NCBI RefSeq assembly: GCF_021869535.1
Contig: NW_026262676.1
Span: 1,798,001-1,862,000, forward strand
Direction: 5' to 3'
DNA: 64,000 nt
Source of the DNA: Mytilus californianus
Taxonomy: Eukaryota
Positions 1,688 through 42,911 of this stretch are shown piece by piece (position 1 is the first letter of the stretch; every line of letters begins with the position of its first letter). A program made the translations under genes and the position numbers. Below the pieces are notes generated by a model. It was not told the origin of the DNA and did no database searches. It worked only from the letters and a program-made list of their open reading frames with translations.

Positions 1688-4600
1688 GATGAAATGCTGG
1701 CACTCTAAATTAAAGCGGACAAGATTTTGTTATCATTGTATTGCAATGTTGCTGTCATTTGTATTATACAATCCATCCTGACATCAAAATATTGCTGATT
1801 TACTATGCAGCTGCCGCTATATAGATTTACATAATAAAGTGCAAATATGGTCAGTTTTGTTTGATACTTTAAAATAGTTTTGTTATGAGAGTCAGCCTGA
1901 GGTATCAAAACTACTGAAATTTTCTTGCAAGACAATATTTTTAATAAAAAGAGGACATGCTGGCTATCTAGATTGATGGGGACAAATTTTTGTTGTCATT
2001 GTATTGCAATGTTGCTGTCATTTGTATTATACAATCCATCCTCACATCAAAATATTGCTGATTTACTTTGCAGCTATATGCTGATTTACTATGCGGCTAT
2101 ATAGATTTACATACATGACATAATAAAGTGCTAATATGATCAGTTTTGGCGGATGCTTTAAAATAATTTTGTTATACAAGTCAGCCTGAGGTATCAAAAC
2201 TACTAAAATTTTCATGCGAGACAATATTTTGAATAAAAAGAGGACATGCTGGCTATCTACATGTAGATTGATGGGGACAAATTTTTGTTGTCATTGTGTT
2301 GCAATGTTGCTGTCATTTAATTTGTATAATGCAATCCATTCTGACATCAAAATATTGTTGTTTACTATGCGGCTATATAGATTTACATAATTAAGTGCAA
2401 ATATGGTCAGTTTTGGTTGATTCGTTTAAATAATTTTGTTATAAGAGTCAGCCTGAGGTATCAAAACTACTGAAATTTTGTTGCGAGACAATATTTTGAA
2501 TAAAAAGAGGACATGCTGGCTATCTAGATTGATGGGAACAAATTGTTGTTGTCATTGTATTGCAATGTTGCTGTCATTTGTATTATACAATCCATCCTGA
2601 CATCAAAATATTGCTGATTTACTATGCGGCTATATAGATTTACATAATAAAATGCAAATATGGTCAGTTTTGGTTGATGCTGTAAAATAATTTTGTTATA
2701 CAAGTCAGCCTGAGGTATCAAAACTACTGAAATTTTCTTAAGAGACAATATTTTGAATAAAAAGAGGACATGCTGGCTATCTAGATTGATGGGGACAATT
2801 TTTTGTTGCCATTGTATTGCAATGTTGCTGTCATTTGTATTATACAATCCATCCTGACATCAAAATATTGCTGATTTACTATGTGGCTATATAGATATAC
2901 ATAATAATGTGCAAATATGGTCAGTTTTTGTTGATGCGTTTAAATAATTTTGTTATACTAGTCAGCCTTAGGTATTAAAATTACTGAAATTTTGTTGCGA
3001 GACAATATTTTGAATAAAAAGAGGACATGCTGGCAATCTAAATTGATGGGGATCATTTTTGTTGTCATTGTGTTGCAATGTTGCTGTCATTTGTATTATA
3101 CAATCCATTCTGACAATAAAATATAGCTGCTTTACTATGTGGCTATATAGATATACATAATATTAAAAGTGCAAATATGGTCAGTTTTGGTTGATGCTGT
3201 AAAATAATTTTGTTATACAAGTTAGCCTGAGGTATCAAAACTACTGAAATTTTCTTAAGAGACAATATTTTGAATAAAAAGAGGACATGCTAGCTATCTA
3301 GATTGATGGGGACAAATTTTTGTTGTCATTGTATTGCAATGTTGCTGTCATTTGTATTATACAATCCATCCTGACATCAAAATATTGCTGATTTACTATG
3401 CGGCTATATAGATTTACATAATAAAGTGCAAATATGGTCAGTTTTGGTTGATACTTTAAAATAGTTTTGTTATATGAGTCAGCCTGAGGTATCAAAACTA
3501 TTGAAATTTTCTAGTGACACAATATTTTGAATAAAAAGAGGACATGCTGGCAATCTAGATTGATGGGGACAAATTTTTGTTGTCATTGTGTTGCAATGTT
3601 GCTGTCATTTGTATAATGCAATCCATTCTGACAACATAATATTGCTGATTTACTATGCGGCTATATAGATTTACATAATAATAAAATGCAAATATGGTCA
3701 GTTTTGGTTGATTCGTTTAAATAATTTTGTTATACGAGTCAGCCTGAGGTATCAAAACTACTGAAATTTTGTTGCGTGACAATATTTTGAATAAAAAGAG
3801 GACATGCTGGCTATCTAGATTGATGGGAATAAATTGTTGTTGTCATTGTATTGCAATGTTGCTGTCATTTGTATTATACAATCCATCCTGACATCAAAAT
3901 ATTGCTGATTTACTATGTGGCTATATAGATATACATAATAATGTGCAAATATGGTCAGTTTTTGTTGATGCGTTTAAATAATTTTGTTATACTAGTCAGC
4001 CTTAGGTATCAAAATTACGGAAATTTTGTTGCGAGACAATATTTTGAATAAAAAGAGGACATGCTGGCAATCTTAATTGATGGGGATAATTTTTGTTGTC
4101 ATTGTGTTGCAATGTTGCTGTCATTTGTATAATGCAACCCATTCTGACAATAAAATATAGCTGCTTTACTATGTGGCTATATAGATATACATAATATTAA
4201 AAGTGCAAATATGGTCAGTATTGGTTGATGCTTTAAAATAATTTTGTTATACAAGTCAGCCTGAAGTATCAAAACTACTGAAATTTTCTTACGAGACAAT
4301 ATTTTGAATGAAAAGAGGACATGCTGGCTATCTAGATTGATGGGGACAAATTTTTGTTGCCATTGTATTGCAATGTTGCTGTCATTTGTATTATACAATC
4401 CATCCTGACATCAAAATATTGCTGATTTACTATGCGGCTATATAGATATACATAATAAAGTGCAAATATGGTCAGTTTTTGTTGATGCGTTTAAATAATT
4501 TTGTTATACTAGTCAGCCTTAGGTATCAAAATTACTGAAAAATTGTTGCGAGACCATATTTTAATTAAAAAGAGGACATGCTGGCTATCTTAATTGATGG

Positions 4601-5520
4601 GTATATTTTTTGTCGTCATTGTGTTGCAATGTTGCTGTCATTTGTATTATACAATCCATTCTGACATCAAAATATTGCTGATTTACTATGCGGCTATATA
4701 GATTTACATGATAAAGTGCAAATATGGTCAGTTTTGGTTGATGCTTTAAAATAATTTTGTTATACGAGTCAGCCTGAGGTATCAAAACTACTGAAATTTT
4801 CTTGCGAGACAATATTTTGAATAAAAGAGGTCATGCTGGCTATCTAGATTGATCAGGACAAATTTTTGTTGTCATTGTATGGCACTGTTGCTGTCATTTG
4901 TGTTATACAATCCATCCTGACAACAAGATATTGCTGATTTACTATGTGGCTTTATAGATATACATAATAAAGTGCAAATATGGTCAGTTTTTGTTGATGC
5001 GTTAAAATAATTTTGTTATACGAGTCAACCTGAGGTATCAAAACTACTGAAATTTTGTTGCGAGACAATATATTGAATTAAAAAGAGGACATGCTGGCAA
5101 TCTAGATTGATGGGGACAAATTTTTGTCATTGTACATGTTGTTTTGCAATGTTGCTGTCATTTGTATTATACAATCCACCCTGACATCAAAATATTGCTG
5201 ATTTACTATGCGGCTATATAGATCTATATAATAAAGTGAAAATATTATGGTCAGTTTTGGTTGATGAGTTAAATAATTTTGTTATATGAGTCAGCCTGAG
5301 GTATCAAAATTACTGAAATTTTGTAACGAGACAATATTTTTAATAAAAGGAGGGCAAAAATATTTCCAAATTTTTTAACCCTATATAAATTAACAGATTG
5401 ACACACTCCCCATTTCCATTCTCAATTTTATAATTATAAGTGCAAATATGGTCAGTTTTGGTTGATGCTTAAAATAATTTTGTTGTACATGTTGTACATG
5501 TACCAGTCATCCTGAAGTAT
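1688..5520. repeat. Tandem satellite, ~257-260 bp unit, ~14 copies plus a partial copy
   Basis: Anchor GAGGACATGC recurs at about 1951, 2240, 2507, 2764, 3021, 3281, 3538, 3798, 4055, 4315, 4572, 4827 (variant) and 5085. Confidence 0.95.
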
Positions 5521-21489: not shown

Positions 21490-22130
21490 ACAATCCTCAA
21501 TTTCGTAGGTTAAATCAGACAATTTTCTACTAATTTTGTAAGGACCAATCTAACCCAAACCAAGTTTTTGTTTGCTTTTGGTGGATACCATCTGAGAACT
21601 GTATTCCCAATTTCAAATTGTCTGTGTTTTAGTCTACAATCATAGTATTTTTTCTGTCTATGAAAATTTGACTGCAAATTTTCATGAACTTTATCGAAAG
21701 CTCTTTGCATGGCGTCGCGCATCCATTCAATGTATAAATTTGGACAGAAACTAAAATTTTCATCTTGGTTTAACCCGGTTAAGATATCAATTGGTAAAGA
21801 TATTTCGCGTCCGAGCATTGGAAATTTGGACTGCATTTCGTACTTTCGTGGGTACATGCTCTGTATGCCATTGTAACATAAGGGAGGTGGCTATCCCAAT
21901 CATCTTTATTTTCATTAACAAACATTGATAAAATTTGTTGTAGGGTCCCATTGTAGCGCTTTACCATACCGTCTGACTGTGGGTGATAGGGAGTGCTTCT
22001 AGTTTTCTCGATTTACTTGCGAAAAGTTTGGACTCGAACTCACGTCCCTGATCAGTATGTATACGGCATGGCGCCCCGAACCGAGAAATAAATTATGTTA
22101 CGAGCTTGTCGGCCACTGTCTGAGCACAAT
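21490..22130 (-). mobile_element. Gypsy LTR retrotransposon integrase remnant
   Basis: FISRFGAPCRIHTDQGREFES, PYHPQSDGMVKRYNGTL, WDSHLPYVTMAYR, MLGREISLP, RQKKYYD. Stops and frameshifts; cut by a SINE at 22137. Confidence 0.9.
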
Positions 22131-22136
22131 AATTAA

Positions 22137-22390
22137 CCCAAGGGTGACTTGGGAATAGAAGTATGGTCACCATTGGTCTTCCTCCGACTTGCTAAAGTGG
22201 GGCGTCCGTTTGGCTGTGCGGGATGTACAAATTTGCAGCCACGTCCGGTCAGAATGGGGACGTTAAATCCGATGCCTCGTGTAAAGAGAGTGCCACGCCC
22301 TTTGCACGTTAAGAACCCTTGCAACAACTCTTTGAGGGGTCCGTAGGTGACATGTTGCAAGGCTAAATTTCTGTCCTTATCCAATATACC
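22137..22390 (+). mobile_element. SINE, 3'-truncated, with internal deletion
   Basis: Starts CCCAAGGGTGAC; lacks the tail and the CGGCAGTAAAACC segment. Confidence 0.9.
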
Positions 22391-31281: not shown

Positions 31282-31684
31282 TGTATTGTATTGTATTGTA
31301 CTTTATTCACAAATATAATAGAAATATTTTCTGAAACTAGGTAATCATATTTATTTGAATTGGTGTTTGAAATTTATGATAACTACAGATGTTGTTAATT
31401 AAATAACAAATTCCATAAATCTTGTATGAGAATTTTATTACTGTTTGGTTTAGGTGAGTATAATGATATTGAAGTGTTTGTGTGGGCTTGCTAATAACTT
31501 ACCAACAATTACTGTCAGATTAGCGTGGTTTTTATATATTATCTAGACTTCTTGTAGGAGCTGTGTAACACACATCCGACATAGACCATGGGTTAGAACA
31601 GGAAGCCCCGAATTGAGAGATATCACTTCCGGCTAAGGATATATACTTCTCCTGAGAGTAGGAGCACCTCTAAGATTCACTACA
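31282..31684 (-). mobile_element. Putative 3' LTR (~400 bp)
   Basis: Minus strand begins TGTAGTG immediately after the purine tract AGGGAGGAG; contains TATATAAAAA and AATAAA; ends ...TACA. The left boundary is uncertain within a TATTG repeat. Confidence 0.6.
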
Positions 31685-31693
31685 CTCCTCCCT
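31685..31693 (-). promoter_or_regulatory. Polypurine tract (PPT)
   Basis: AGGGAGGAG abutting the TG start of the putative LTR. Confidence 0.6.
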
Positions 31694-31912
31694 GTCATCT
31701 TCTTTTTGTTGACAATTCTCATGGTTGTGAAGACAGTTTCACTAAAGTTCCTATCCGCAGAATTTCCATTTGTATCCATGTTTTAATAGACGTAACATAT
31801 TATTGCAAATATCCATATTATTAAAAATCCAATCCAATGTAATAAAATGTTAACAACTCGTCGGAATAACATAGAGTGACTTTGAACGTTCCTTCACCAT
31901 TCAGATCTCCTT

Positions 31913-32090
31913 CCTTACACAAAACTCTAAGTGAACAGCACAGATGTCGCACACTAGAATTCCGCATAACATAAATTACTCTGATTCTTCATCATCTTAT
32001 CCTTACACAAAACTCTAAGTGAACAGCACAGCTGTCGCACACTAGAATTCCACATAACATAAATTATTCTGATTCTTCATCATCCTATCT
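31913..32090. repeat. 88 bp tandem duplication in the 3' UTR region
   Basis: CCTTACACAAAACTCTAAGTGAACAGCACAG at 31913 and 32001. Confidence 0.9.
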
Positions 32091-32242
32091 CATTCCTTCC
32101 ACCAATATAGTTATTAACATATATAGATATAAATGTCCATCAATCACATACTCTTTAAATCCTTTTAAAGAGGAAACATTATTATTAAACCACATAAAAA
32201 AATATGTACATATATATATATAAAGTCACAATTATTTGTATC

Positions 32243-33749
32243 TCACTGTAATTTGTAGATTCTTTTAAAATTTTCAGTAGTAATCCTGAAGACATCTTCA
32301 ATTGGTTGCTGTAAAAGTTCAGATATTTTTAGTGCCACTCCATGTACTGAGTAGGGATTTCCAATAGTGTGAGAATGAAGAGGAATATACGGAGCATCTG
32401 ATTCCAAAACTACACGTGTAATGCCAAAGGTTTTCACAATTTCTACAATATTTGAATACCGGTCTTTCAAAATAAATGGAGTAATGCCAAAAACAATGTT
32501 AGAAAACTGGCTGACCGCTGCTGAATAAAGTTGAGTGGTACAGGTAAAACAATGCCAATGAATTAGTTGATCTGGTTTACATATTTCACTTAATGTGGCC
32601 AAAACGTGTTCATGCAGTGATGGTTTTCCTCTTGAGTGAAAAACTACAGTTAAATTCAGTTCTGTGGCCAAATAAAGTTGTTTTCTGAAATATTTTACCT
32701 GTCGTTCGAAATCTCTTCTTGAAGGATTAGTAGGGTCATCTAAACCAATCTCTCCAACTGCCACTGTTGTTGTTGATTTTAGTAAATTTTGAAGGTCAGT
32801 CCAATTATGTTCAAGAGATGAAGTTGAAGATGAGCTTATAATTTTAGGATGAATGCCAAAGGTGAATCTTAACCGGTTATCTTTTCTAAATTCGCTGCGC
32901 TGTGCTGAGTTTGGCCAAGCTGAAGGAAAAACAAAGTTAGCAATGGCATATTTCAATTCTGTTTTATATGTGCTTTGGGAGCCAAGGTCTTCCAGATCCT
33001 GGAAAGCTCCACTACCCATCTGCCTGCATAGTTGGTCTAGATGAAAATGAGAGTCTATAACGTGTAGTGGTCCGGATAACTTTATACTCAGCTGTCCAAT
33101 TTGAAGTCCTTCTTTGTGTTTTTCTTTCTTCGAATTTTAACAGCCAAAGTTGTTCATCTGAATTTAAATAACCAATTAGATTTTTAAGAATTTTCCAATG
33201 TAAAATATGATGAATTTTCAATAATGGGGTTGCTGGAATTTTGTAGTTAGAGGCAGGTTACAAACAATTTAATTTCAAGAAAGCATCCACGAGTTTAACT
33301 TCTGAAATATGGAATTCTGTAGGCGGCAACTGTGTCCTTATTCTCATTATGGCATTCAGTTTCTCTTCAAGGCCTACAGGGAAGGAGGTACCTATTGCAC
33401 GAGCTAACTCTCGTAGAAGACCGTTCATTAGCTCGGCGTACATCACTTCCCTGTTCTTAAAGGTAGCATCAATATAATTTGTTGGATGACAGCGAGTTAT
33501 GTGCTTACTCAGGAAATTGGCTGTCTGTTCCTGAGTACCACAAATCCAACAGGCAGTCTCTGGCGCCACATACCATGGTAGATGGGTTTGAATGGTGTGT
33601 CTCCTTGGGTTGGTAAATGTGTGGAAGCAAATATCACACTCCCTGTGCAGCAAGCGGACATTCTTGGCCTCGCCTCTGATAGCTACCTGTCTTTTAGGTT
33701 CATTTAAGTGATCCTGGTCCTCCTCGTAATCCAATTCTTCCTCGCTCAT
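32243..33749 (-). pseudogene. tatD: Intronless Zn-finger-like + TatD nuclease ORF (~500 aa; one in-frame stop, one frameshift)
   Basis: TatD motifs: DSHFHLD (33055 onward, in frame with ORF 32243-33019), GIHP, VAVGEIGLD, VFHSR, HWHCF, LESDAPY. N-terminal C-x2-C...H-x4-H and C-x2-C...H motifs. Stop at 33258-33260; frameshift near 33060. Confidence 0.88.
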
Positions 33750-33948
33750 TTTACCTGGAAAATACTGAATGACCCTACTCATTAAAACTTTTATTTTTTT
33801 TAAATAAAGCTATGAAAATGAGCAAACACTATTACCTTTACGTGTATTCGTGAAATAAAAATAGAAAAAATAAAATAATTTTTTACATAATTTAACATAA
33901 TACTAGTATACAAAAATATTTAAAAGCATTTGTGATTAACATCATCAC

Positions 33949-34190
33949 TCAAGTCTCTTCGCTAACTACATCCACAACATAATCTGACAAATAGCTTGGC
34001 AGAACCCTCTTTCTTTTTTCTCTGCCTGATGTTTCAGTTTTATCAGGCACTTTTAAAGTATTCTTATCCGGGGACAAGAGAACAGCACTGCTGTCTCAGT
34101 CTGATGTTTCAGTTTTATCAGGCACTTTTAAAGTATTCTTATCATGGGACAAGAGAACAGCACTGCTGTCACTATTGCCACTACTCATTT
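33949..34190 (-). mobile_element. LTR-retrotransposon pol C-terminal tail with an in-frame 75 bp duplication
   Basis: ...SGREKRKRVLPSYLSDYVVDVVSEET*, matching the R-x-R-K-x-P-x-Y-L-x-D-Y-V motif common at pol C-termini. Duplicated unit at 34026 and 34101. Confidence 0.6.
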
Positions 34191-34194
34191 TAGC

Positions 34195-34360
34195 CAAATC
34201 GAAAAGTTTGGTGACAATTATTGCTACATTCTACTTTATATTTGTTCTCATCTGTTTGTGGCATACCATATTTTGTCAATCCATGCTTAATCATGTATGC
34301 CAGTCTATGTGCAGCTTCCCTTTTTCTTCATCCCCTGGCCATTTCACAACCTACTGCCAA
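34195..34360 (-). pseudogene. His-Me finger (HNH-type) endonuclease fragment
   Basis: VVKWPGDEEK(fs)REAAHRLAYMIKHG...VECSNNCH resembles AHRLAY...SHLCH of zf-His_Me endonucleases; the downstream half is missing. Confidence 0.45.
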
Positions 34361-36290: not shown

Positions 36291-36777
36291 ACCCCCAAGG
36301 GTGACTGGGGAATAGAAGTATGGTCACCATTGGTCTTCCTCCGACCGGCAGTCCCCCCAAGGGTGACTGGGGAATAGAAGTATGGTCACCATTGGTCTTC
36401 CTCCGACCGGCAGTAAAACCCTTGCTAAAGTGGGGCGTCCGTTTGGCTGTGCGGGATGTACAAATTTGCAGCCACGTCCGGTCAGAATGGGGACGTTAAA
36501 TCCGATGCCTCGTGTGAAGAGAGTGCCACGCTCTTTGCACGTTAAGAACCCTTGCAACAACTCTTTGAGGGGTCCGTAGGTGACCTGTTGCAAGGCTAAA
36601 TTTCTGTCCCTATCCAATATATCCTCATTTCCCGTGGCAGTCTAAATTTCTCCGACCTTAATCCCGGACACCCCTATAACAGAACCTACCTATTGTATTT
36701 ATTGTTAATTTGTTCTCGTCCTGAATATGCATGAAATATTTGCCACTGGACGTTAAGCAACCAACAATCAATCAATC
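36291..36777 (+). mobile_element. Full-length SINE preceded by a duplicated 62 bp head
   Basis: Head 36291-36352 is repeated at 36353; complete body and (CAAT)n tail; no TSD seen. Confidence 0.95.
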
Positions 36778-37504
36778 GATCTACAAAAAAAAATTAAAAT
36801 AAGTTCTTGATTGTTGGTGTACTGTATTATTGGTGTCTTGTTGAAGAATATTCAAAATCTTCTTTGGTTCATACATGAAGTGAATAAAATAATAAAATTA
36901 AATGACTATTTCAGATCAGTTAATTACTAAGATTCTGTCAAAACATTGGATCAGAGAAGGATGTGAAAAAGTAATGAGATAAGCTTGCATCAGTGAATGA
37001 CATTGGATCACTGGAAATCTGTATAACTAATGGAAGTTTATAGGAGAAAGACTTGATTTAAGAGGCTGTCATTTAGCATTAACAATCATTCTATGTTACA
37101 GTTAATTTGTAAAACCATGGAACTGATTTTATAAAATCCCTGATTTTGACTAGAGATTTTTACAAAATCACCGAAATAAGTAATATCTTTATAACAGATT
37201 TCCTAAATAAATTTCAGAGAATTTGAAATACAAAATCGGTTTGATTAAAAATTCTTCAAAAAACCAATGTGAGGTTAATTTAGCCTTTTATGTTAATACA
37301 AAGTGAGTGTTCTTCTAGTAAAAAAAAAATGTACATGATTAAATCGAAAATTAGTCTCAATTAACGATTCCGTCTTAAGTAATGATACGGAAACATATTC
37401 CCCATTCGCATTCTCAATTTTATTTGTCATAAATATATTTAATGCACAACTGTTTCAACTTTTTAAATTGTTTGTCATAAATAGATTCATTCAATAAACA
37501 ACTG

Positions 37505-41090: not shown

Positions 41091-42911
41091 CTGTACAGAA
41101 AGCAAAAAAAGGTTAAAGAAGTACCATAATTACTTAAAAGAAATAAAATATCACATCTAAACTTTTTGTATTTACAAAAAAACATTAACTTTGAAAAATC
41201 AAATCTTAATGTAAATGAGATTCAAATCTTCAAACCAAATAATTACATCGTCAACGTACACTAAACAATGTTGCTATGTTAAACCTCTCAAAACTTGTGT
41301 CATTAAAGACTGAAAACTTTGACAAGCATAAGGCATTCTCTTAAATTGATGTAATTTATCACGAGAAATAAAGGCTGTTTAATGCTTTGAGTGTTCGTCA
41401 ATTGGCATTTGATAATAAGCCAATGTCAAATCAAGTTGTGAATAAATTTTGGCATGTGATTGTCCTATAGCATCAAAAACATCATCTAAACAAGGCAGCG
41501 GATGTTGATGAAGAATTGATTGTTTGTTAATCCGCATTTACGTTATGCAGTTCATTGCGTCGTATTTTATCCAATGAGATAAAAGAACAACATTATATAT
41601 CGTTAAACCCCCCTGCATACATCTCCTTTTAGAATATGTTATTTTAATTAATCGGATTATGTTGTATTCATTTGCAATGCAGATATATTCAGTTATTATT
41701 TCGTCAGCGAAAGGACTGAGAGCCATAAAATCACCGAGAAGGGTGAGTACCATATTATGACTTATCGTGTTGTCATAGAGCGAAAACAATTCCATACATA
41801 TATATCCTCTTTAAATGATTACAAAACAATTATCTATTCCCAATAATTTTTATTTCACACAATAAAAAACACATTTCAAAGTATATTTCATCTTGATGTC
41901 TCTCACTTTAAACCTTACAAAATAAAACTATCAAACAATACGTTTATTTTAATGGGCCATCATCATTACTAGATAAGTAATTGAAATAAACATCTTTTTT
42001 TTTTTATCGAAAAAAATGTTTTATTTATCTGTAGACGCTTTCTTATTTTTCCCCATTAGGTCCGAGACCACAATTATTTCGTAGTGCATTTCTTTTAGAC
42101 AATAAATGAAAATTTAAAAAATCCCACCTGCGCTTTCTCAATAAAATTTTTACAGTGTTGTACTACTTTTGGGACAAATTATATCAAAATTATAGAAAAT
42201 TTCATCGGCTCTATCTCAAAATATGGACAATTTTATGTTTAGGGGGTCTTGAAATCTTTTGACAGCTTCCGAAGTGCTAATTTTTAACCTTTTTCAGCTT
42301 GGTAAATCACTACTTACCTTTACAATTCTGGACCCAAATTTTTTTACAGTGTAATTTCACCCCCCTACTTGCAATTTGAGGCATGAAACATGGAGAAATA
42401 AATTTGGAAGGGGTATAAAAAAAATTGGCAAGTAACCCACTGTCAACACTAGGGACTATATTCGGGGACAACGTAAATCAAGGGACGACAATTGTGGTAT
42501 CGGACCATTAAGGATGTGCGACAGTTATGTTTTGGTATTTTCATCAGATTTTCGAACTCCTCAATATTTATCCATCTCATAACGTAGAAAATACTTACTT
42601 CTAAAAAAAAATATCCTTATTTTCTAATTTCAATTGTCAGTTCCCTGACTAAATTTTCCAACACTTGGAACTCTTTTCTTTAAGTCTTCTATTTCCTCAC
42701 TACATGATTTCTCCCATCTAATGCTCTAAAAAGAAAAACAAAATCAAACTTTTACACATAACTGCAGTAGAGATCAAAGATTTGGTGATTTTTTATTATT
42801 CTTACGCGCGTTAGTCAAAAAGTCATTGCCTGAAACTTTATTTCAATTTGTCAGTTAAATCGCTATATTTCTTTACTAACACAGACACAAAAGTAGATAG
42901 GTAGAAATTTA

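Follow-up and report, generated by a model that had tools for sequence, protein, structure and literature searches.

Does the TatD nuclease frame of this locus belong to an LTR retrotransposon, and if so, what might it do there? The window analysed here is a stretch of 64,000 nucleotides of Mytilus californianus DNA (contig NW_026262676.1, positions 1,798,001 to 1,862,000). As listed in Table 1, window positions 34203-31470 on the minus strand are the decayed, 5′-truncated 3′ end of a Ty3/gypsy LTR retrotransposon. The order read in the original prediction (pol tail, spacer, TatD ORF, 3′ untranslated region, polypurine tract and TG start on the minus strand) is seen in the window, and so is the TatD domain with its metal-ligand motifs: the Pfam profile PF01026 matches over its positions 1-253 (E 7.6e-42), and HxH, GEIGLD, HxR, HCF and ESD are all there. 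The element ends abruptly at 34203 and no further part of it lies within the 64-kb window, where, as predicted, neither a reverse transcriptase (RT), an integrase core nor a 5′ LTR was found; no tRNA genes were found in the window either.

The pol tail of the window copy has a 75-bp tandem duplication, is broken by an in-frame stop near 34098, and ends with the stop codon at 33951-33949. Its peptide, guessed at first to be pol-like, closes the integrase reading frame in a full-length copy, and the guess was thus right. The expected intronless ORF of about 500 residues has that length in relatives, but in the window copy a stop at 33260-33258 interrupts it, and the reading frame shifts between 33130 and 33114. 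A candidate splice acceptor AG is located at 33756-33755, 5 nt ahead of the ORF3 start. An LTR of about 400 bp (31282-31684) had been proposed and was rejected: the real LTR is 31684-31470, and 31469-31282 lies outside it, because genome matches break at base 215 and this stretch belongs to a separate repeat, which runs from 31469 to 30710 and occurs with 96% identity at a locus without the LTR. The LTR carries two TATATA motifs, in line with the TATA that had been noted, but the AATAAA is absent from it. Over 2.74 kb, the fragment shares 96-97% identity with two full-length copies in the same genome and 87% with a third copy, and its LTR diverges from those of the two full-length copies by 1.9-3.3% (K2P). 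The copy in the window is dead, a remnant of one family of an old Ty3/gypsy clade. There is hardly any doubt that the element and its TatD cargo are as described. Elsewhere in the window, positions 21591-22143 and 41220-41549 hold old integrase and RT remnants from other LTR elements, which are 27-57% identical to the queries, 2118-5353 is a tandem array of a 257-bp unit in 12.5 copies, and 36354-36781 is a dispersed 430-bp SINE-like repeat with many copies across the window.

Table 1. Parts of the retrotransposon fragment and the adjoining repeat, in window coordinates
Feature	Position	Strand	Remark
pol 3′ end (integrase C-terminal tail, ..RKRVLPSYLSDYV..*)	33949..34203	-	5′-truncated at 34203
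AT-rich spacer, ~200 bp	33750..33948	-	ends in pyrimidine-rich stretch and AG
ORF3	32243..33749	-	ATG 33749 to TGA 32243; ~500 codons in relatives
TatD nuclease domain, HxH (class II) type	32252..33058	-	every metal-ligand motif present in window copy
3′ untranslated region	31694..32242	-	contains 88-bp tandem repeat at 31908-32089
Polypurine tract AGGGAGGAG	31685..31693	-	immediately precedes 3′ LTR
3′ LTR, 215 bp, TG...CA	31470..31684	-	genome-wide matches split at base 215
Separate repeat, outside element	31282..31469	.	continues to 30710

Is the TatD frame a regular part of a mobile element? Elsewhere in the mussel genome, the full-length layout is LTR-gag-PR-RT-RH-IN-ORF3-PPT-LTR with 4-bp target duplications. 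One full-length copy encodes gag (Retrotrans_gag, CCHC), protease, RT, RNase H and integrase, followed by a 510-codon frame with TatD; it has LTRs of 211-215 bp, a TCAT duplication and a primer site starting with TGG. The pol of this copy is itself broken, and its TatD has substitutions in two ligand motifs. The window TatD has at least 136 matches in the genome and the Pfam model at least 152. A first sample of 27 loci was picked for long matches or open frames, and gypsy RT lies upstream of TatD in all of them. The fetched span includes an LTR pair at 20 of the 27 loci; the pairs are 0-5.8% diverged (four without any mismatch), and an exact 4-bp target duplication was readable at 12 of the 20 by reading of the ends. 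At these LTR-paired loci, a TGG start lies 0-1 nt past the 5′ LTR and a purine tract precedes the 3′ LTR. The primer site, TGGTGTCAGA, is presumably that of tRNA-Leu. The loci sort into at least eight families. By the pol order after gag, the paired TG...CA LTRs, the duplications, the primer site and the polypurine tract, the element is a member of Ty3/gypsy. The linkage that had been predicted was found, as homologous TatD ORFs lie between a gypsy integrase and a 3′ LTR instead of being unlinked from them, and the window-type LTR occurs in pairs with 4-bp target duplications. The clade is old yet recently mobile. In one contig, the copies at G000:C115:415445-429323 and 1030369-1040649 have identical flanks, so they are one insertion duplicated along with its surroundings; one of the two has a 3.6-kb internal tandem duplication.

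A second sample comprised 20 further Pfam loci. Half of them have gag/pol remains upstream (two of these partial), four are element-type TatD pieces with no pol in the 8 kb upstream, and the other six are a TATDN3-like exon, a host TATDN2 exon, two PIF1-linked loci and two other TATDN2-like loci. Therefore, some TatDs of this genome are not gypsy genes. A motif scan of metagenome contigs found 40 loci, and the ORF3 profile matches 28 of these. Pol lies upstream on the same strand in 15 of the 28 (nine with a whole TatD), which come from seven record prefixes; as for the remainder, 11 have fewer than 750 bases upstream and two have room yet no pol. In the 24 loci from a scan of IMG/VR, only the TatD barrel matched (22-29% identity) and no element-type ORF3 was found. 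The closest proteins in public records are labelled Mytilus, and one labelled Saccostrea, an oyster, also carries the N-terminal domain (N-domain) of ORF3.

Where did the TatD domain come from? A comparison with host and bacterial TatDs, which the original prediction had called for, places the element TatDs in a clade of their own beside TATDN2. In a quick tree of 109 rows, the element TatDs and one unnamed row with a weak N-domain match are on one side of a branch with an SH-aLRT of 97. A careful tree of 45 rows supports the elements (100/98), the TATDN2-like proteins (99/94) and the two together against bacterial, TATDN3-like and plant rows (96/92), with the proviso that this tree has no TATDN1 rows and no AU test and that the element branches are long, so that the exclusion from TATDN2 could be wrong. 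In both trees the element TatDs are not nested in the animal TATDN2 clade and form a separate branch beside the TATDN2-like group. Profile scores are 193-230 bits for TATDN2 versus 72-167 bits for bacterial TatD. If the root lies among the bacterial, TATDN3-like and plant rows, the element TatD would be sister to all sampled TATDN2-like proteins, and such a position implies an old capture. These trees point to a single origin of the element TatDs beside TATDN2. The predicted retrotransposon family with a captured nuclease is thus borne out by a layout that recurs in at least eight families; the capture is older and wider than had been supposed, as it concerns a whole clade.

Did the nuclease travel with pol? 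In a pol tree of 39 rows, all 25 ORF3-linked rows (three scored by the N-domain alone and two by fragments) form one clade (98) with three rows that have no detected TatD. No TatD was found in the 6.5 kb fetched for each of the 11 rows outside the clade. Two of the three TatD-less rows are near TatD families and look decayed. The third (L196:3429-4910) has a PHD finger at the pol end and keeps the N-domain of ORF3, while a short unrelated domain replaces TatD in the stretch fetched, so that the nuclease can be dispensed with. Gypsy elements outside the TatD clade (L197-L203 and L211) also have an ORF after pol, and six of the eight scanned match C2H2 zinc-finger families (E<=0.01, some weakly), which suggests that TatD joined a zinc-finger ORF3 that was already present. 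When the TatD and pol trees of 19 elements were compared, 10 of 16 splits were common, against a mean of 0.22 and a maximum of 3 after shuffling, with one well-supported conflict; TatD has largely co-diverged with pol. It is likely that an ancestor with a zinc-finger ORF3 would have acquired a TATDN2-lineage nuclease domain once, and that the domain would then have been mostly inherited along with pol and lost in at least one family. One pair of copies, L173 and that at G000:C132:111.42 Mb, has pol DNA 95% identical over 3.9 kb and ORF3 just 71% identical, through either a module swap or very rapid ORF3 change.

It was also assessed how selection has acted on ORF3, as had been suggested at the outset. 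Between diverged subfamilies, the dN/dS of TatD is 0.09-0.27 in eight of nine pairs with dS of 0.19-1.9, and 0.67 in the ninth (L062). The corresponding values are 0.11-0.25 for the N-domain and 0.17 for RT; in ten pairwise TatD or N-domain comparisons dS is saturated, so that no ratio is obtained. For young copies, most dN/dS intervals include 1. Since the ratio is low between subfamilies and indistinguishable from 1 among most young copies, the elements are selected while transposing and decay neutrally once inserted, which is selection at the level of the element.

What kind of protein is ORF3? It consists of an acidic N-terminus, two Cys/His zinc-finger-like motifs (CxxC...RH...HLPW and CxxC...H), a helical domain and the TatD barrel. 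The structure model has a pLDDT of 83.5 with a low-confidence acidic start, and the modelled barrel aligns with solved TatDs at Z 31.8 and an rmsd of 2.2 Å over 251 residues; Foldseek also matches TatD. Because of the barrel fold and the HxH, Glu, His, His and Asp ligands, the domain is assigned to the class II TatD family (PF01026), with a predicted nuclease activity. Among 161 homologues, HxH is retained in 145, GxHP in 155, GExGxD in 143, HC[FY] in 152 and E[ST]DxP in 150. The N-domain is present in 134 of 142 new representatives at 50% identity, among the matches listed. Fold searches with the whole model were filled by barrel matches and hardly sampled the N-domain, which gave a pLDDT of 39 when modelled alone without an alignment. 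In the ESM Atlas, no usable match was found for the whole ORF3, and the N-domain gave generic C2H2-type leads only (0.89-0.91). The frame does lie in the env-like position noted in the prediction, between pol and the 3′ LTR, but the protein has no env character. In eight ORF3 proteins of this genome, no signal peptide, membrane segment or hydrophobic N-terminus was found (top 19-residue hydropathy 0.84-1.79), there is no match to fusion proteins, and both Pfam and the fold indicate TatD; an env role was therefore rejected. Among the 30 longest homologues scanned, four (P0031, P0130, P0143 and P0170) have a NADAR domain fused ahead of an ORF3-type TatD protein.

The ORF3 frame is separate from pol in every copy examined but one. 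The exception is L083 (G000:C165:31.69 Mb), in which pol with a PHD-like finger reads into ORF3 in a single 1814-codon frame; this fusion is seen in one copy, whose two relatives are too broken for comparison. A start codon was found in 18 of 23 copies, and in 15 of the 18 an AG lies within 10 nt of it, mostly after a pyrimidine run (a count without a shuffled control). ORF3s of LTR elements are described as typically made from a spliced message (PMC5408684, in the part available). Since the frame is separate and an AG is so often near the start, a spliced message is likely for ORF3 here as well. In about 6% of each of four raw RNA runs, 26 reads fall on the element, on the LTR/leader, the pol tail and ORF3, with none between 669 and 7348. 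No splice joint was found among the 26 reads, which are too few to show splicing, and an oligo-dT bias or 3′ fragments would fit the same pattern.

What could such an enzyme do for the element? As the best explanation I propose, tentatively and with somewhat more doubt than belief, an accessory enzyme whose nuclease activity disposes of RNA:DNA hybrids or of single-stranded by-products that arise as the element replicates. ORF3 would come from its own, probably spliced, message and not as part of Gag-Pol, and its zinc-finger-guided nuclease would act on the element's own nucleic-acid intermediates. Its targets, like those of TATDN2, would be the RNA in RNA:DNA hybrids or R-loops and any single strands left over, which it would degrade; copies would thereby be helped to finish or to be transcribed in germ cells, with less damage or signal left. 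This role is favoured because TATDN2, the nearest cellular enzyme, is reported to degrade the RNA strand of R-loops and hairpin RNA while sparing R-loop DNA (PMC10711561, available part), and because fish tatdn2 is reported to work, and to be needed, in germ cells (PMC12709183, available part). Because the element has a conserved RNase H of its own (68-82% identity at 18 of 20 loci) and one family has no TatD, the role would be accessory and no replacement of RNase H. Since the element TatDs are long-branched and lie beside TATDN2, not inside it, their choice of substrate may differ.

Alternatively, although I regard this as rather unlikely, ORF3 might be directed against host defence, by destroying host small RNAs or their precursors or by removing cytoplasmic element cDNA before innate sensing. 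ORF3 changes much faster than pol (25-47% identity for TatD vs 43-76% for RT, in the best segments), the L173 pair fits an accessory module that is exchanged or evolves fast, NADAR-TatD fusions are found as described above, and TatD is reported in host-parasite conflict elsewhere (PMC10085689; QatD, PMC13434339; available parts of both). However, dN/dS between subfamilies, taken pairwise and not site-wise, is well under 1, and this genome's copies lack a signal peptide or membrane segment. An improbable third role is DNA repair, with an AP-endonuclease or 3′ exonuclease mending cDNA or trimming ends or integration gaps. Such activities are reported for TATDN1, TATDN3 and three E. coli paralogues (PMC10085689, available part), and the active-site motifs are common to element TatDs, but the reported sparing of R-loop DNA by TATDN2 argues against it, and the LTR ends and 4-bp duplications are ordinary, with no trace of unusual end processing. 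It is very unlikely that the nuclease degrades the intermediates of other retroelements or curbs the element's own bursts: many TatD families do share one genome at modest copy number, yet self-limiting elements are expected to lose out, as was argued for DEDDy ORF3s (PMC5408684, available part). That the TatD ORFs are host genes or retrocopies lying in LTR debris, as the labels tatD or TATDN2 in public records and the four second-sample loci without pol could suggest, is highly improbable and already largely refuted by the constant position between integrase and polypurine tract, the congruence of the TatD and pol trees, the element-level pattern of dN/dS (about 0.2 between subfamilies) and the separate, intron-bearing host TATDN2, one exon of which matches a protein labelled M. 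californianus at 100% identity.

Few LTR retrotransposons of animals are known to carry an enzyme as fixed cargo. Searching the literature by title or abstract start, I found no description of a TatD-carrying LTR retrotransposon; Repbase, Dfam and GyDB may already hold such families without comment on ORF3. TatD is not mentioned in the available text of PMC5408684 or PMC10294476, and in that of PMC6962438 it is a gene label. The closest likeness is to the Juno and Vesta elements of bdelloid rotifers, as far as they are described in the available part of PMC5408684. There too the third ORF, which follows pol and precedes the 3′ LTR, encodes an enzyme, in the rotifers a DEDDy 3′-5′ exonuclease with intact catalytic residues and a proposed activity on RNA or ssDNA 3′ ends, and the ORF type is common to different element classes. 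In contrast to the TIM-barrel TatD of the mussel, the fold is DEDDy, and the rotifer ORF3s are family-specific and were gained repeatedly, whereas in the mussel one gain marks a deep clade of many families, fused to a zinc-finger/helical domain. Errantiviruses and other env-bearing gypsy elements have a third ORF at the same position, probably expressed via a splice acceptor (PMC13524379, available part); unlike env, ORF3 is a predicted soluble enzyme. An AlkB m6A demethylase domain in orchid Ty3/gypsy elements is another case of a gypsy lineage fixing a captured nucleic-acid enzyme, although in a plant, described as recent and with a different enzyme (PMC9289625, available part). The MolGy Ty3/gypsy elements (Metaviridae) of molluscs share the order gag-PR-RT-RH-IN, TG...CA LTRs, a PBS, a PPT and 4-bp duplications; their clades are defined by RT/RNase H, the words "ORF" and "envelope" are absent from the available text (PMC6238403), and they are compared here by layout only. 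Animal TATDN2 (class II) has the HxH motif and TatD barrel in common with the element enzyme (PMC10711561, PMC12709183 and PMC10085689, available parts) and is the nearest cellular group by tree and profile score. As a clade of their own, the element TatDs fall outside the sampled TATDN2 set, which spans cnidarians to vertebrates; they are intronless and evolve faster, and the ORF3 N-domain is in none of the named host TATDN2 proteins. Enzymatic ORF3s as such have precedent (DEDDy, AlkB); TatD is not a known cargo of retrotransposons.

Are there other mobile carriers of TatD? Two similar loci without gypsy pol, L138 (G000:C97:1318000-1327999) and L153 (G000:C143:95654000-95663999), have a PIF1 helicase (Pfam E 9.6e-21) followed closely by a TATDN2-like TatD. 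In the trees, the PIF1-linked TatD groups with the TATDN2-like set and not with the gypsy clade, and a Helitron-like element may have captured TatD separately; no literature on TatD with Helitrons was found. Sister to the PIF1-linked group is another TATDN2-like group (L137 and L144); it is multi-copy, apparently lacks introns and has no gypsy pol upstream. I give nearly an even chance to the wider proposal that an undescribed, ancient branch of marine-invertebrate Ty3/gypsy elements is defined by a TATDN2-lineage nuclease on a zinc-finger/helical domain, which would serve in the germline, independently of RNase H, as a second means of attacking RNA:DNA hybrids or host small RNAs, and that TATDN2-like nucleases were also recruited separately by a PIF1-helicase (Helitron-like) element, TatD being perhaps a recurrent transposon weapon. 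If so, many invertebrate gene models named tatD or TATDN2 would be transposon genes. Mussel proteins with these labels are largely element genes, a mislabelling that would distort claims of gene-family expansion. Selection that maintains a gene throughout a deep clade means that it has a task which the core gag-pol cannot perform. ORF3 offers a direct way to test what limits retrotransposition in the germlines of invertebrates, be it hybrid clearance, silencing or sensing. The elements also hold a natural library of more than 100 divergent TatD enzymes and an unnamed zinc-finger domain. That domain also occurs elsewhere: P0117, P0179 and P0194 are very long proteins in which the N-domain is repeated three to five times and TatD is absent. 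Ankyrin repeats occur in one of them and a B-box-like start in another, and for two of the three the longest contig is 186.7 kb.
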